DNA from: Candidatus Kaiserbacteria bacterium
Lineage (GTDB): Bacteria; Patescibacteriota; Minisyncoccia; Phycocordibacterales; UBA918
NCBI GenBank assembly: GCA_020428795.1
Contig: JAGQME010000003.1
Coordinates: forward strand, 30,438-94,437
DNA length: 64,000 bases
Direction of reading: 5' to 3'
The first letter of the stretch is position 1, and each line of letters starts with the position of its first letter. This document shows, in pieces, positions 3,552 to 42,908 of the stretch. A program made the translations under genes and the position numbers. The notes beneath the pieces are model-generated. The model did no database searches. It was not told the origin of the DNA and worked only from the letters and a program-made list of their open reading frames with translations.

Positions 3552-4010
3552 TTAAGCCTTATCTTTGATATTGAGAAAGTCTCCCAGAATGTGTTTTAGA
3601 CCCTGTCTTGATATGATACCAACCGGCCGACCTTCTTTATCGATTACTGGTATCCTAGCTCTTTGTCTTGAGACGGCTGTCGCTGCTACTTCAAATAATC
3701 CATCGTGGATGCCAACAGTATCAAAATCATAAGACATAAACAGACTAACCGGAGTGTCACGGGCCTCTTTGATGGCTGCCTCAAACTGATCTTCACTGGC
3801 GAAATGTTCTAATACATCATCACCATCAACATCCATCGGCACGACTGCATCCAAAAAGTCGGCCACTGACAATTCGCCGGTGAGTTTACCTTCCTCATCA
3901 ACCACCAAGAGGGTGTTGGTTTGTGAGCGGATCATCTTGGTCAGAGCTTCGGCGAAAGTGCTTTCTTCACCAATAATGTGCGCTTCTTTGATAATATCAG
4001 CGACTTCCAT
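3552..4010 (-). CDS. CBS-pair domain protein (paralog 1), last gene of the CBS-permease-CBS operon
   Basis: Two CBS-type repeats. The likely start is MEVADIIKEA (internal Met of ORF 3552..4070). About 45% identical by eye to the paralog at 5535..5993. Confidence 0.75.
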   Translation of the reverse strand: MEVADIIKEAHIIGEESTFAEALTKMIRSQTNTLLVVDEEGKLTGELSVADFLDAVVPMDVDGDDVLEHFASEDQFEAAIKEARDTPVSLFMSYDFDTVGIHDGLFEVAATAVSRQRARIPVIDKEGRPVGIISRQGLKHILGDFLNIKDKA

Positions 4011-4111: not shown

Positions 4112-5479
4112 CTAGTGTTTAATCGGAGCCGGTATGTTTGTTTCATTTTTAACGCCTTCAGCGCTGTGAGCTACTCCAGAATGGCTAGAGAACCACGGGG
4201 TGACTAGGGCCAAGCCTAGGGTAGCGATAAGTAGACCGATTATCATAGTCGGCGCTCCTTGTTTAATCCAGTCGATAAAGCTGATTGGATTTTCAGTTTT
4301 TTCTGATTTAGCTACCACAATCACACCAGCGGTTGAACCAATTGGTGAACCATTACCACCAAATCCAACACCGAACACCAATGCCCACCACAATAAATCA
4401 ATCGGTACTCCTTGGGTTCCTAGATAACTAATAATAGGGATCATAGCTACTGTAAGCGGAATATTGTCAACCATGGCGGACAAAATAGCGCTTGACCAAA
4501 GGATGATGATGGCGGTCAGTAGGAGATTATCATGAGCACCTGAGGTTAGTAGGCCAGCTGCTTTTTCAAGTACACCAGCGTTTTCTAGACCACCAACGAT
4601 CACAAATAGTGAACCGAAGAATAACAAAACTGACAACTCACATTTTTCAATAATACTCTGCGGGTCGTGTTTGGGAGCGACAATTATAAGCGCAAGTGAG
4701 GCTCCGATTAGAGCCACCATCGAGGCTTCTAGGTGTAACAAAGAGTGAGTAAAGAACATGGCTACTACCAAAGCAAAGATAAATAGCAACTTTTTAAGGG
4801 TTTTCTTATCTTTGATAGCTTCGTTTTCGTTCATCAACATCAGTTTGTCAACGTTCTGAGGTTCTTTTTTTAGGTCTTTATTAAAGAGAACTCTAAACAA
4901 AGCCAAAGTAGCTACCCAAGTTATGACTACTACTGGTAGAGCGTGAACTAGGAAATCGTTAAAAGAAAAACCAGCCGCTGAACCAATCATGATGTTTGGG
5001 GGGTCTCCGACTAGAGTGGCGGTACCACCGATGTTTGAAAGTAGGGCTTCAGCCATCAAGATAGGAATCGGGTTAATCTTAAGCATTTCAGCTATGATGA
5101 TGGTGATCGGTACTATCAAAATGATGGTAGTAACGTTGTCCAAGATCATTGATAGAGAGGCAGTAATACCAGAGAGAGCCACCATCAACAGCCAAGGATT
5201 GCCCTTGGTTTTTTTGGCGGTCCAGATTCCCAGATATTGAAAGACTCCAGTCTTTTCAAGCATACCCACCAATATCATCATGCCGAAGAGCAGGCCAAGA
5301 GTGTTAAAGTCTACTACTTCCAATACTTGTTCTGGATGATAAAAGTCAAAATAAATACCAGCTAGTACCATGGTTATGGCACCGACCAGTCCGATTACGG
5401 TGCGGTGAATTCTTTCAGTCAGGATGAAGAAGAATGTAACACCAAAGATTAGGACGGCAATTAGTTCAGTTGTTTCCAT
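4112..5479 (-). CDS. ArsB/NhaD-superfamily (CitMHS/YbiR-like) anion permease
   Basis: Polytopic membrane protein with the family-typical GDPPNIMIGS motif and a central hydrophilic loop. It is flanked by CBS-domain genes, as seen in many members of this family. Confidence 0.75.
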   Translation of the reverse strand: METTELIAVLIFGVTFFFILTERIHRTVIGLVGAITMVLAGIYFDFYHPEQVLEVVDFNTLGLLFGMMILVGMLEKTGVFQYLGIWTAKKTKGNPWLLMVALSGITASLSMILDNVTTIILIVPITIIIAEMLKINPIPILMAEALLSNIGGTATLVGDPPNIMIGSAAGFSFNDFLVHALPVVVITWVATLALFRVLFNKDLKKEPQNVDKLMLMNENEAIKDKKTLKKLLFIFALVVAMFFTHSLLHLEASMVALIGASLALIIVAPKHDPQSIIEKCELSVLLFFGSLFVIVGGLENAGVLEKAAGLLTSGAHDNLLLTAIIILWSSAILSAMVDNIPLTVAMIPIISYLGTQGVPIDLLWWALVFGVGFGGNGSPIGSTAGVIVVAKSEKTENPISFIDWIKQGAPTMIIGLLIATLGLALVTPWFSSHSGVAHSAEGVKNETNIPAPIKH

Positions 5480-40285: not shown

Positions 40286-41185
40286 TTACTTCCAAAATTC
40301 AATAATAAAAACCCCAAAAGTAATTAAAATAATTGCCATCCATTGGGTTGGTGAAATTTGGTTCCGTTCATGGATGGGGAATAGAAAGAAAATAATAAGT
40401 AAGAAAATACTCTGTACACCACCTAAAGCAGTTACATAGGCTCCTAAGGGAGCCAGTGAGATAGCTAGCATTACAAAAAGGAAAGAAATTTGAGATATAG
40501 TCTCGTTTAATAAACTAAAACCGAGAAAGTTGCCTCCCTGATTCTTTACTCGATATAAGAATCCATCACGATACGGTTTAATTAGACTGACCAAAAATAA
40601 TCCAATTACACCAATCCCTACGTATTGATAAAAGAATACCGTCAGTACGCTCGTTTCTGCAGAAGCCAATCTAACCAAGAAAAGTGATACTGACCACATT
40701 AGTGAAACCGGCAACATGATTAATAGAAGTTTGGTGGGAACTTTCCATCTAAAAGTATCAGAATCAAGTATGTAAGCACCCAAAACCAACACCCCAATTC
40801 CTAACAAAGCAGTAAAGGTAACATGAGCACCAAATAATAATTCAATAACCAATAGCCAGATACTGCTCAAACCAAATAGGGGTACAACCTGATGGGCTGG
40901 GTAGATAAGGAATAAATAGAAGTAGGCAGTCCATAAAATAACCATAGGTACGGCAGAAGCTAAGGCCAGATAGAGTGAGTGGTTGCTTATACTTAAGTCA
41001 CTAATATATAAACCAAGGCTAGCAATAGTCACAACACTAAGTAGTGTAGAAATAATGATCACACCCCCGATTCTTTTATGGGGACTTTCTTGGTCGGTAA
41101 CTTTGTTGTTTGACGTTAAATACTCGTCAATATAATTGACGAGGGCCATGGTGAAACAGTGAATAATTGTATAGACAAACCACAT
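40286..41185 (-). CDS. DMT-superfamily (EamA-like) membrane transporter, putative
   Basis: About 10 TM helices in two 5-TM halves. Confidence 0.45.
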   Translation of the reverse strand: MWFVYTIIHCFTMALVNYIDEYLTSNNKVTDQESPHKRIGGVIIISTLLSVVTIASLGLYISDLSISNHSLYLALASAVPMVILWTAYFYLFLIYPAHQVVPLFGLSSIWLLVIELLFGAHVTFTALLGIGVLVLGAYILDSDTFRWKVPTKLLLIMLPVSLMWSVSLFLVRLASAETSVLTVFFYQYVGIGVIGLFLVSLIKPYRDGFLYRVKNQGGNFLGFSLLNETISQISFLFVMLAISLAPLGAYVTALGGVQSIFLLIIFFLFPIHERNQISPTQWMAIILITFGVFIIEFWK

Positions 41186-41255
41186 GTAATTATTAAATTA
41201 TAACAGAAGTAAGCATCTATATAATAGAAACTTCGATTATTCTAATTTATCATAC

Positions 41256-41299
41256 AAAATGGTACGTACATAAGTACGTACTTATGTACGTACCATTTT
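41256..41299. repeat. 44-bp perfect palindrome rich in GTAC cores
   Basis: aaaatggtacgtacataagtac|gtacttatgtacgtaccatttt, an exact dyad symmetry with no spacer. Confidence 0.85.
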
Positions 41300-41362
41300 A
41301 CTAGTCCGTCAAGAATGATCCGTGGCGTTAGAGTGAGGAGGAGGTGGGATGGCTAGGCGGAT

Positions 41363-41488
41363 TTTTACATACTATGCAGATATTATGCTAATAATTTTTT
41401 TAAGACGGTCCGGTTTAAAATTTGGGAACTTTTTTATTCTCTTAAGAGACTTTTTGAATCTACTGCTATAGTGAACTGTGTATTTCAT
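41363..41488 (-). pseudogene. Truncated yafQ/relE-family toxin remnant (41 codons, then a stop and unrelated sequence)
   Basis: Translation MKYTVHYSSRFKKSLKRIKKFPNFKPDRLKKIISIISA* aligns with the N-terminal half of YafQ-type toxins. The ATG lies 2 nt after the antitoxin stop. All three frames carry stops beyond this point. Confidence 0.5.
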
Positions 41489-41490
41489 AA

Positions 41491-41763
41491 CTACAGCTCT
41501 AGGTCGGCAAAGAGTTCGTCTAGGTTATGGTAACCTTTGGAACGCTTTGCTTTCTTAACGTCAGAAACTAGGGCCTTTTCTTGTGCAGGAGTGAAGCCAT
41601 TTTCAGTTTTTAAATCCAAAGGTACACCTTTTCGGTTTATTACATTTATTAAAAATAATTTAATGGCACTAGACATATCTAAACCAACTCCATCGAGTAT
41701 TTTTTTGGCATTCTTCTTGGTCTTAGAGTCAATTCGTATTTGTATAGTATCTTGATAATTCAT
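41491..41763 (-). CDS. DinJ/RelB-family type II antitoxin (ribbon-helix-helix)
   Basis: IQIRIDSKTKKNAKKILDGVGLDMSSAIKLFLINV matches the DinJ N-terminal RHH. Size is 90 aa. Confidence 0.75.
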   Translation of the reverse strand: MNYQDTIQIRIDSKTKKNAKKILDGVGLDMSSAIKLFLINVINRKGVPLDLKTENGFTPAQEKALVSDVKKAKRSKGYHNLDELFADLEL

Positions 41764-41812
41764 AATAGGAGTTTATAATTTTGTAATGACAATGTAAATA
41801 CATTTTATGTTT

Positions 41813-41827
41813 CGGCGGTAGGATTCG
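41813..41827 (-). repeat. 15-bp exact direct copy of the tRNA-Asn 3' region (T-loop/acceptor); att-like scar
   Basis: cggcggtaggattcg recurs at 42840..42854 inside the tRNA, in the same orientation, about 1.03 kb away. Confidence 0.5.
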
Positions 41828-41919
41828 TTCTTATGGTTTGTAATTTTCTACGTTCTTGACGACCACGATACAAGTCTCACTTGTCTAAGCATTATTGCTA
41901 GAAACAAATACAAGAAAGT

Positions 41920-42270
41920 CTAATTTTCTTTATACCAATACACTGGAGTCCCTGATTCTCCATATTGCTCAATCACGTCATCAAGTGGGTCCAGCCATTC
42001 TTCACTGCAACCACGTTCTGTAACCCAAGCGTTCCAGGTATCCATCTGAATATTTACATCAGATTGCGGATATTTGGTTAGATACTCATAAGACCATGCA
42101 TTCCAAAAGTCATTGAAGTTACCTTCAGTCGGGCATTGTAAAAATTTAGTGTCACTATCATCTAGATTAGATGTGGCAAGATATAAATCAATAAATAAGA
42201 TGTCATAAACAACAAGACCTGCCATAAACGCACCTATGACTATCATTATGAATTTTAGTTTTCTACCCAT
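41920..42270 (-). CDS. Hypothetical exported/membrane-anchored protein (Trp-rich)
   Basis: N-terminal TM helix. Lies inside the att-like bounded segment. Confidence 0.35.
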   Translation of the reverse strand: MGRKLKFIMIVIGAFMAGLVVYDILFIDLYLATSNLDDSDTKFLQCPTEGNFNDFWNAWSYEYLTKYPQSDVNIQMDTWNAWVTERGCSEEWLDPLDDVIEQYGESGTPVYWYKEN

Positions 42271-42662
42271 GCTTTACAACCCTCATTAAATGATTTTGAT
42301 GTATTTGGACACTCACTTTTCCACATAATATTATTTTTCATAGCCCAATTGTAGCCCGCTTCATGACCACTGCAATCTTTTGTGCAATTATACCCATGGA
42401 AATATTGGGGCCTGTTTTCTATTCTTTCTTTCAAATCTTTGTCAGTCACTCGTTCGTCTGTGGGAATAGAAATATAATTTAGAAAGCCAAAAAAGAATCC
42501 AAAGGCAATAATCGGCCCAAGCCCAAATAATATAAGCTTAGGGAATGTGTCGATTTCCAATCGTTTCTCTTTTTCCTGACGCTCTCTAGATGCTTGGAGC
42601 ATACGTTTACGGAATTCCTCTTTAGTTAGTTTTTCGGTCATAAAATACAAAAAGCCCACCAC
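42255..42662 (-). CDS. Hypothetical protein with a central TM helix and a Cys-rich C-terminal region
   Basis: 135-aa ORF overlapping the downstream ORF by 16 nt. Lies inside the att-like bounded segment. Confidence 0.35.
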   Translation of the reverse strand: MVGFLYFMTEKLTKEEFRKRMLQASRERQEKEKRLEIDTFPKLILFGLGPIIAFGFFFGFLNYISIPTDERVTDKDLKERIENRPQYFHGYNCTKDCSGHEAGYNWAMKNNIMWKSECPNTSKSFNEGCKAWVEN

Positions 42663-42833
42663 ATATGGCGTGGTCTCTCGGCCACCGATACCAGTTTCCC
42701 AGGACGGCCCGTCAGAGCTAACCTCACAAGATAAATTATATAATATAAAAATTCATTTTTATATTAATTTCGAGTGCAGTTCAAGAAAACTCTGCTTACG
42801 ACAATTCGTTAACAAAATAAAAAAATCATTTGT

Positions 42834-42908
42834 TGGCTCCGGCGGTAGGATTCGAACCTACGACCAATGCGTTAACAGCGCACTGCTCTACCGCTGAGCT
42901 ACGCCGGA
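42834..42908 (-). tRNA. tRNA-Asn (anticodon GTT), 75 nt with encoded CCA
   Basis: Manual fold gives acceptor TCCGGCG/CGCCGGA, D-arm GCTC-AGCGGTA-GAGC, anticodon arm GTGCG-CTGTTAA-CGCAT, T-arm GTAGG-TTCGAAT-CCTAC, discriminator G, CCA. Confidence 0.9.

Follow-up and report, generated by a model that had tools for sequence, protein, structure and literature searches.

Likely decay of a mobile dinJ-yafQ cassette into an orphan antitoxin and a toxin remnant in Candidatus Kaiserbacteria

The locus considered here consists of an antitoxin gene followed by the beginning of a toxin gene, as found in Candidatus Kaiserbacteria. The term ‘window’ is used to describe the whole stretch of DNA that was analysed, 64 kb in length, with coordinates being positions in that stretch. 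Read along the minus strand, i.e., from higher toward lower coordinates, there is a tRNA-Asn gene, then two small ORFs, the antitoxin gene with its predicted promoter, the toxin remnant, a tRNA-like fragment, a palindrome, and the gene for an EamA-family transporter. Housekeeping genes are found on both sides, these encoding Fpg, a glutaredoxin-like protein, HPF, Fmt, and Def on one side and a CPA2 antiporter and an MGMT-like protein on the other.

The antitoxin gene (dinJ/relB; 41763..41491, minus strand) is intact and encodes 90 aa. The encoded protein scores above cut-off in profile searches with both Pfam RelB (PF04221; 47.9 bits versus a cut-off of 22.4, over residues 6-77) and the NCBIfam profile TIGR02384, RelB_DinJ (68.4 bits versus 45.65, over residues 5-88), which bears out what the first-pass annotation of this DNA had described as a full-length ribbon-helix-helix antitoxin of 90 aa. 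Chains of E. coli DinJ (4q2u_A and 4ml0_A) are matched by the window DinJ as well (E about 1e-5), with residues 7-76 of the E. coli protein aligned. All 13 of the invariant and all 19 of the near-invariant residues of a 37-member alignment are retained, and in that same alignment the C-terminal NLDELFADLEL of the window DinJ is common to its closest homologues. As judged by these comparisons the antitoxin is a RelB/DinJ family member, and one that is without degeneration. The antitoxin itself was previously annotated, with NCBI MCA9361198.1 being its exact database entry. What is new is recognition of the adjacent yafQ pseudogene, the exclusion of artefact as its cause, and what look like two tRNA-end scars found around the cassette.

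Upstream of the antitoxin gene is a predicted cassette promoter and operator (41770..41803, minus strand). A promoter scan places a -35 element, TTTACA, at 41798..41793 and a -10 element, TAAACT, at 41775..41770, with the imperfect palindrome TGTATTTACATTGTCATTACA, at 41802..41782, serving as a putative operator. The block TGTATTGACAATGTCAwTACA is found upstream of the antitoxin in six of the relatives that are introduced below (L009, L010, L013, L025, L035, and L045), with the -35 element lying within the palindrome and a -10 element then following. The TGTATTTACATTGTCATTACA and TAAACT of the window are found at the spacing seen in these relatives, and are two or three changes away from their consensus. 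The cassette promoter and operator, as so predicted, are retained in the window. As the -35 element (TTTACA) and the operator nevertheless both differ from the consensus of the relatives, expression could be weakened.

The toxin remnant (yafQ; 41488..41372, minus strand) is recognized by its homology to intact toxins, and it starts 2 nt after the antitoxin stop (TAG TT ATG), just as had been described originally. It consists of 38 codons (41488..41375) plus a TAG (41374..41372), and therefore not of the 41 codons that had been counted. Similarly, though a T7/A7 homopolymer run does exist at 41395-41401, where it encodes the Leu-Lys-Lys-Ile of remnant codons 29-32, the stop that had been placed within that run is found instead 21 nt downstream of it. 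A tblastn search over the whole window with the partner toxin of the closest antitoxin homologue (L014) finds the remnant at 73% identity over 37 aa (E 4.6e-15). More generally, residues 1-37 of the remnant are 59-73% identical to those of the intact PF15738 toxins of L009, L010, L013, L014, and L025, versus 62-76% identity among the intact toxins over the same 37 residues. In terms of profiles, the 38-aa peptide scores 16.8 bits with PF15738, which is below the cut-off of 30 and covers only positions 1-33 of the 88 of that profile, and 13.6 bits with TIGR00053, below the cut-off of 87.25. The shortfall with PF15738 is because merely one-third of the domain remains. That is, the YafQ origin that was originally proposed for this peptide is borne out by identity to PF15738 toxins, but with the PF15738 score itself being below cut-off. 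Homology to intact toxins stops at codon 37/38, and missing in their entirety are the C-terminal motifs DH..L.G, RECH, and H.QLF, which we take to hold the catalytic or active-site His, Asp, and Phe residues of E. coli YafQ. By these alignments the 38-aa peptide is the genuine N-terminal third of a YafQ toxin, with the last two-thirds having been lost.

Seven distinct relatives of the antitoxin fall within a 60-78% identity class (L009, L010, L013, L014, L025, L035, and L045). In every one of these seven, the antitoxin is directly followed by a PF15738 toxin of 93-94 aa, versus 38 codons in the window, and a full-length toxin from these relatives matches YafQ-family structures, i.e., 4nrn/2otr (HP0892) and 4ml2/4q2u_B (E. 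coli YafQ), at E values of from 2e-18 to 1e-6. Their genomic contexts also differ in seven out of seven cases, these being SecDF/AA-kinase, Memo/DUF6176, glyoxalase, GDSL lipase, SpoU/SurA, response regulator/ABC, and acetyltransferase/DUF1653. As the toxin is intact in all seven relatives, and each of those relatives is found in another context, the module may be viewed as a mobile dinJ-yafQ cassette from which the toxin has been lost here. The comparison with homologous loci that the first-pass annotation had proposed thus finds the window alone to be shortened, and it supports that annotation's view of a type II toxin-antitoxin (TA) module which has lost its toxin (residues 38-93 are missing from the window) while retaining its antitoxin.

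Certain other potential comparisons were set aside. Parallel toxin loss in P0033 contigs was rejected, as the toxin is unlisted in three of those contigs, yet its ORF is intact in all, i.e., what is seen is an omission by the gene caller. Antitoxin relatives found on viral contigs are merely 34-40% identical and therefore are uninformative as a guide to cassette boundaries. With L009, a dinJ-yafQ unit of 0.7 kb lies between 156-nt direct repeats (2746-2901 and 3601-3756) which are 95.5% identical, and the second of these copies makes up the 3' end of the neighbouring AA_kinase gene. It appears, that is, that insertion of the L009 cassette duplicated the 3' end of a gene.

Past the remnant of the window comes the GC-rich sequence ccatcccacctcctcctcac. 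This had been described as unrelated sequence possessing stops in all frames, and stops indeed are present in all three frames past the remnant, but the start of the sequence resembles the 3' end of a tRNA-His. This tRNA-3'-end-like fragment, AATCCGCCTAGCCATCCCA (41345..41363, minus strand), starts 8 nt past the remnant stop and, upon comparison with tRNAs, is most like tRNA-His. Its layout consists of the end of a T-loop, the 3' strand of a T-stem, the 3' strand of an acceptor stem (TAGCCAT), C73, and CCA. A pattern made up of the fragment plus a canonical T-loop is found in a genuine metagenomic tRNA-His(GTG), in L020, which is identical to the fragment at positions 58-71 as well as C73. The 3' end of E. 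coli hisR agrees with the fragment at 15 of 19 positions, this being the best match of that 19-mer anywhere in the window, with both strands considered, versus 10 of 19 positions for the 3' ends of Arg, Leu, and Pro tRNAs and of the window's own tRNA-Asn. By the author's estimate, about 0.15 matches to hisR at 15/19 would be expected to arise by chance in 64 kb. The exact 19-mer has no matches in a collection of species-representative genomes, and the window is without a tRNA-His gene. The fragment is probably the scar of a tRNA-His 3' end, as based on these 19 nt. Should the 3' end of this genome's tRNA-His read ...TTCRAATCCGCCTAGCCATCCCA, then the fragment would be a genuine His scar, while a different end would weaken that reading.

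Other origins for the GC-rich piece were considered. That it might be a second tRNA-Asn scar was rejected, as there is no significant alignment to the window's tRNA-Asn. A 26-mer of the piece has no matches in metagenome contigs, and a 17-mer matched two viral contigs, there in unrelated coding sequence, and was dismissed as a chance match. An Rfam search of the junction returned solely spurious, microRNA-type matches to the palindrome that is found further along.

That palindrome (41256..41299), as identified by repeat search, is 44 nt in length and perfect, i.e., it consists of two 22-nt arms, 100% complementary and without spacer, that are flanked by A4/T4. It is unique in the window, has no matches in viral contigs, is terminator-like on both strands (fold z-score of -4.4), and sets the EamA gene apart from the cassette scar. 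It resembles a terminator that acts in both directions. Two short contigs from the same population break at this palindrome.

The EamA-family transporter gene (40286..41185, minus strand; Pfam EamA) is the first gene past the cassette scar. Its protein has no match in species-representative genomes, and an exact look-up finds the same population only. Its closest homologues (L017, L018, and L019; 67-77% identity), which are from related Patescibacteria, have unrelated genes upstream. These EamA relatives are non-syntenic upstream, and so give no guide to the ancestral state of the locus. In several relatives a tRNA or tmRNA gene is found close by in what are otherwise non-syntenic EamA neighbourhoods. 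In L018, a tRNA(CAT)-like gene which is split by a group I intron (4553-4895, with the intron, RF00028, matched at 58.5 bits over 4573-4845), and which is not called by ARAGORN, immediately precedes the EamA homologue and is itself followed by a terminator hairpin. The window's layout of tRNA-like fragment, spacer, and palindrome is alike. L017, with the EamA most closely related to that of the window (77% identity), has smpB and a gene for tmRNA (1607-2847) about 1.1 kb upstream of EamA.

On the other side of the cassette is a tRNA-Asn(GTT) gene (42834..42908, minus strand; ARAGORN and Rfam RF00005, 73.6 bits), which is intact, has its CCA encoded, and anchors the variable segment that contains the cassette. 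A repeat search finds a direct repeat of the 3' part of this tRNA, CGAATCCTACCGCCG, extending from the T-loop into the acceptor stem, at 41813..41827 (minus strand). The two copies, 42840-42854 and 41813-41827, are exact over 15 nt and in the same orientation, with the second lying 1,027 bp downstream of tRNA-Asn and being the sole other copy in the window. Weaker similarity to tRNA-Asn reaches as far as 41796 (local alignment score of 32 versus a maximum of 27 in 500 shuffles), and the conserved cassette promoter starts within about 10 nt of the repeat. The repeat, as the signature of an att-type duplication, looks like an att-like scar of the tRNA-Asn 3' end. Horizontal origin, which the first-pass annotation had suggested, is supported by the seven unrelated contexts in which the cassette is found together with this 15-nt repeat that is directly beside the window copy, about 1 kb from tRNA-Asn.

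Two overlapping ORFs encoding small, membrane-anchored proteins lie in the interval that separates tRNA-Asn from its 3'-end copy (41920..42662, minus strand), one of 135 aa (42662..42255) and one of 116 aa (42270..41920). Neither has matches to Pfam, NCBIfam, or PHROG profiles, and together they are probably a leftover of an integrated element. The 135-aa ORF possesses a transmembrane segment and, toward its C-terminus, a motif rich in Cys, GYNCTKDCSGHEAGYNWA...CPNTSKSFNEGC. No integrase gene or integrase remnant is found among the ORFs of 41,200-42,830 using Pfam, NCBIfam, and PHROG. 

With tRNA-associated islets, insertion is integrase mediated and occurs at the T-loop or 3' end of tRNA genes, leaving att repeats. 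The window resembles these islets in its 15-nt tRNA-Asn repeat along with the second tRNA-3'-like fragment which is found across the cassette, both of them starting in the T-loop. It differs in that there is no integrase gene or remnant near the locus, the segment is only about 1.5 kb in length, and the second fragment is His-like without there being a tRNA-His gene in the window. In terms of what defines a tRNA-integrated island, that is, the bounding direct repeat is present whereas an integrase within the island is not. The cassette nevertheless looks to be bracketed by two tRNA-end scars, of tRNA-Asn and of a His-like tRNA, and the roughly 1.6 kb extending from tRNA-Asn to EamA may be viewed as scarred by earlier movements of mobile DNA.

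Among known members of the family, E. coli YafQ and H. pylori HP0892 are mRNA endoribonucleases with a RelE fold, and loss of the toxin is a common route of decay of such mobile modules. The locus is very likely what remains, after decay, of a small and mobile type II TA cassette, dinJ-yafQ. When intact, such a cassette would consist of one operon, i.e., a sigma-70-type promoter under a palindromic operator, a ribbon-helix-helix DinJ of 90-91 aa, and a YafQ of 93-94 aa. In the window, co-oriented adjacency and a shared promoter/operator, both as expected of a type II TA operon, are present, while only one of the two partners is of full length. Presumably the cassette was acquired horizontally, at a hot spot close to tRNA-Asn. 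Deletion or recombination would then have removed yafQ from codon 38 on, along with the 3' end of the cassette, such that the stump came to be joined to a short, His-like tRNA-3'-end fragment ahead of the hairpin terminator and EamA. Active toxin presumably is no longer made by the locus, and with no toxin made the locus would no longer be addictive. The promoter would still drive DinJ, dimers of which probably would bind the operator and thereby repress their own transcription. The 38-aa peptide, lacking catalytic residues, may also be made, by translational coupling. The result would be a harmless orphan antitoxin though, by analogy, also one which could blunt addiction by incoming, related YafQ-bearing elements. 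As the divergence of the remnant from intact toxins (59-73% identity) does not exceed that among those toxins themselves (62-76%), and as the antitoxin is undegenerated, the loss looks to have been fairly recent, this being the simplest reading.

An alternative is that the truncation is a product of sequencing or assembly, with an A6/A7 indel or a chimeric join masking what in fact is an intact TA pair. Homopolymers do exist at this locus, and several short contigs from the same population end in or just past the remnant, 79-108 nt beyond the antitoxin stop. The remnant, though, is collinear and in frame with intact relatives on both sides of both homopolymers, continuing in frame for 5 codons past the A7 run (IISIIS versus TISILA). 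As frame is kept beyond that run, the truncation is a deletion or replacement junction rather than a homopolymer frameshift or a nonsense event. Toxin residues 38-93, furthermore, are encoded neither in any of the three downstream frames, as translated, nor elsewhere in the 64 kb, as searched by tblastn with intact toxins against both the locus and the whole window, and tblastn finds no other RelE/YafQ-like gene in these 64 kb. With no C-terminal remnant found by either approach, rescue of the toxin via frameshifting is ruled out. Contigs from different samples (L001, L003, and L004) also match the window base for base at the A7 run, the stop, and the downstream junction, another (L007) covers the A7 run, and two (L001/L015) extend from tRNA-Asn to past EamA. 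The exact antitoxin is present on contigs from several different metagenome samples, and contigs of this population are all at least 99.8% identical to the window. The source samples are SAMN08389211, SAMN08389212, SAMN08389228, and SAMN08389236, all of WANG18, along with SRR6747736. Since independent metagenome assemblies hold identical sequence, the truncation is not a sequencing error. The homopolymer error that had been raised as a possible refutation has not materialized, that is, no indel restores the toxin, the remnant is in the correct frame to codon 37, and independent assemblies agree. Artefact is effectively refuted as an explanation, its chances of being correct being negligible.

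Taking the truncation as real, the antitoxin might be maintained by selection, i.e., as anti-addiction immunity, as a neutraliser of a YafQ found elsewhere in the genome, or as a ribbon-helix-helix transcription factor, and this idea is an established one for orphan antitoxins in general (PMC7192599). Every invariant residue, the C-terminal region, the promoter, and the operator are all kept, and the cassette family is common and mobile among Patescibacteria, so that exposure to related toxins is plausible. The toxin stump is equally undecayed, however, so that a recent deletion explains the antitoxin's intactness just as well, and there is no second toxin in the 64 kb. The contigs compared, moreover, all are at least 99.8% identical to the window, and therefore supply no evolutionary depth by which recent neutral decay might be separated from selection acting on the antitoxin. 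A selected antitoxin I consider to be unlikely. Far less likely still is that function resides in a small peptide, whether that of the 38-aa YafQ fragment, as a DinJ-binding co-repressor or stabiliser, or that of a new small gene of 40 aa found on the plus strand, antisense to the toxin stump (41349..41471, or 41333-41471 with its Shine-Dalgarno sequence, GGAGGAGGTGGG-ATG). Translation of the former by coupling is conceivable, as its ATG is found 2 nt past the antitoxin stop, and the latter possesses a textbook ribosome-binding site, GGAGGAGGTGGG-ATG. Neither peptide, though, appears among the called proteins of a set of about 15 billion sequences, and the plus-strand ORF is without a match in Pfam. 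That ORF's Shine-Dalgarno sequence and ATG, in addition, simply complement the tRNA-like fragment's CAT-C-CCA end plus flank, with the rest of the ORF being antisense to a lysine-rich gene. The ORF therefore is probably spurious, and on the same grounds it was rejected as a candidate for the stump of a lost gene.

Decay of a mobile cassette also places the locus among better-known systems. The E. coli DinJ-YafQ (PDB 4Q2U, 4ML0) and H. pylori HP0892/HP0894 (4NRN, 2OTR, 1Z8M) systems share with it an antitoxin-first order and tight spacing. There is, in addition, the likeness of a ribbon-helix-helix RelB/DinJ antitoxin, of toxins (those of the relatives) that match YafQ-family structures, and of a palindromic operator which overlaps the promoter. 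The differences are a window toxin that is cut to 38 codons with its C-terminal motifs gone, a host which is a member of the Patescibacteria (CPR), and low sequence identity to the E. coli proteins. Where species have been sampled well, orphan antitoxins with degraded toxins next to them are plentiful (PMC7192599), and there are catalogues of orphan antitoxins and degraded TA loci for Klebsiella pneumoniae (PMC7192599) and for E. coli (PMC10790755). There, as here, an antitoxin is kept next to a truncated or absent toxin, and the same explanations apply, i.e., passive decay, anti-addiction, or service as a regulator. The window locus differs in being known from a single population.

Some of the cassette's relatives are found in arrays. 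In L045 (451-2850; also L046 and L047) there are seven direct copies of a 30-nt repeat, AAGTTCRAACATCGTCCCATACAGCCAGC, which begin 0-5 nt after the stop codons of small genes. That array consists of at least six small-gene cassettes, a dinJ-yafQ unit with its own promoter being among them, with its genes being those for an acetyltransferase, a 140-aa ORF, a CutA1-like protein, DUF1653, dinJ-yafQ, and a 44-aa ORF. Several of the copies are then followed by a hairpin and a promoter-like module. Related repeats (ARGTTCRAAC-RTCRTCC...) are found around dinJ-yafQ at 2550 and 2925 in L010, at 2024 in L013, and at 2733, 3870, and 3924 in L025, and a member of the repeat family is found just past the toxin stop in L010, L013, L025, and L035. 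The first 10 nt of the repeat are the tRNA T-loop consensus, and the sequences, which are from unrelated genomes, diverge immediately outside of the repeats. No copy of the 30-nt repeat is found in the 64-kb window, nor does the repeat have an Rfam match.

TA gene cassettes occur as well in chromosomal integron arrays, e.g., the Vibrio superintegron. The likeness here is that relatives L045, L010, and L025 carry dinJ-yafQ among small genes that are each followed by an approximately 30-nt direct repeat. The difference is that, upon folding, the repeats of the relatives display neither an attC-like hairpin nor inverted R'/R'' cores, no integron integrase was seen, and the window lacks the repeat. 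The attC hairpin that marks the 3' end of an integron gene cassette is absent, that is, from the relatives' repeats and from the window alike, and the idea that the 30-nt repeats are canonical integron attC sites is rejected for now, as they possess neither hairpin nor inverted cores. A full-text literature search found no paper on integrons in Patescibacteria. A more speculative and, I judge, quite improbable possibility is that the dinJ-yafQ unit belongs to an undescribed cassette system of the Patescibacteria, one consisting of promoter-bearing small genes that are split by a 30-nt repeat, ARGTTCRAAC-RTCRTCC-MAYAMG..GC. These genes would be moved by site-specific recombination at the repeat's core, with real tRNA T-loops serving as occasional secondary sites, and the toxin would have been clipped in an aberrant event. 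Were that so, then it would explain why the window copy has lost both of its repeats and lies between tRNA-Asn and tRNA-His 3' fragments that start in the T-loop.

The appropriate annotation of this locus is that of an orphan DinJ antitoxin accompanied by a yafQ pseudogene. By itself the locus is of little consequence, being one more TA module that has lost its toxin first, in this case in the reduced genome of a member of the CPR. Arrays of the L045 type, with their T-loop-like 30-nt repeat, may have a bearing on how gene cassettes move in Patescibacteria.
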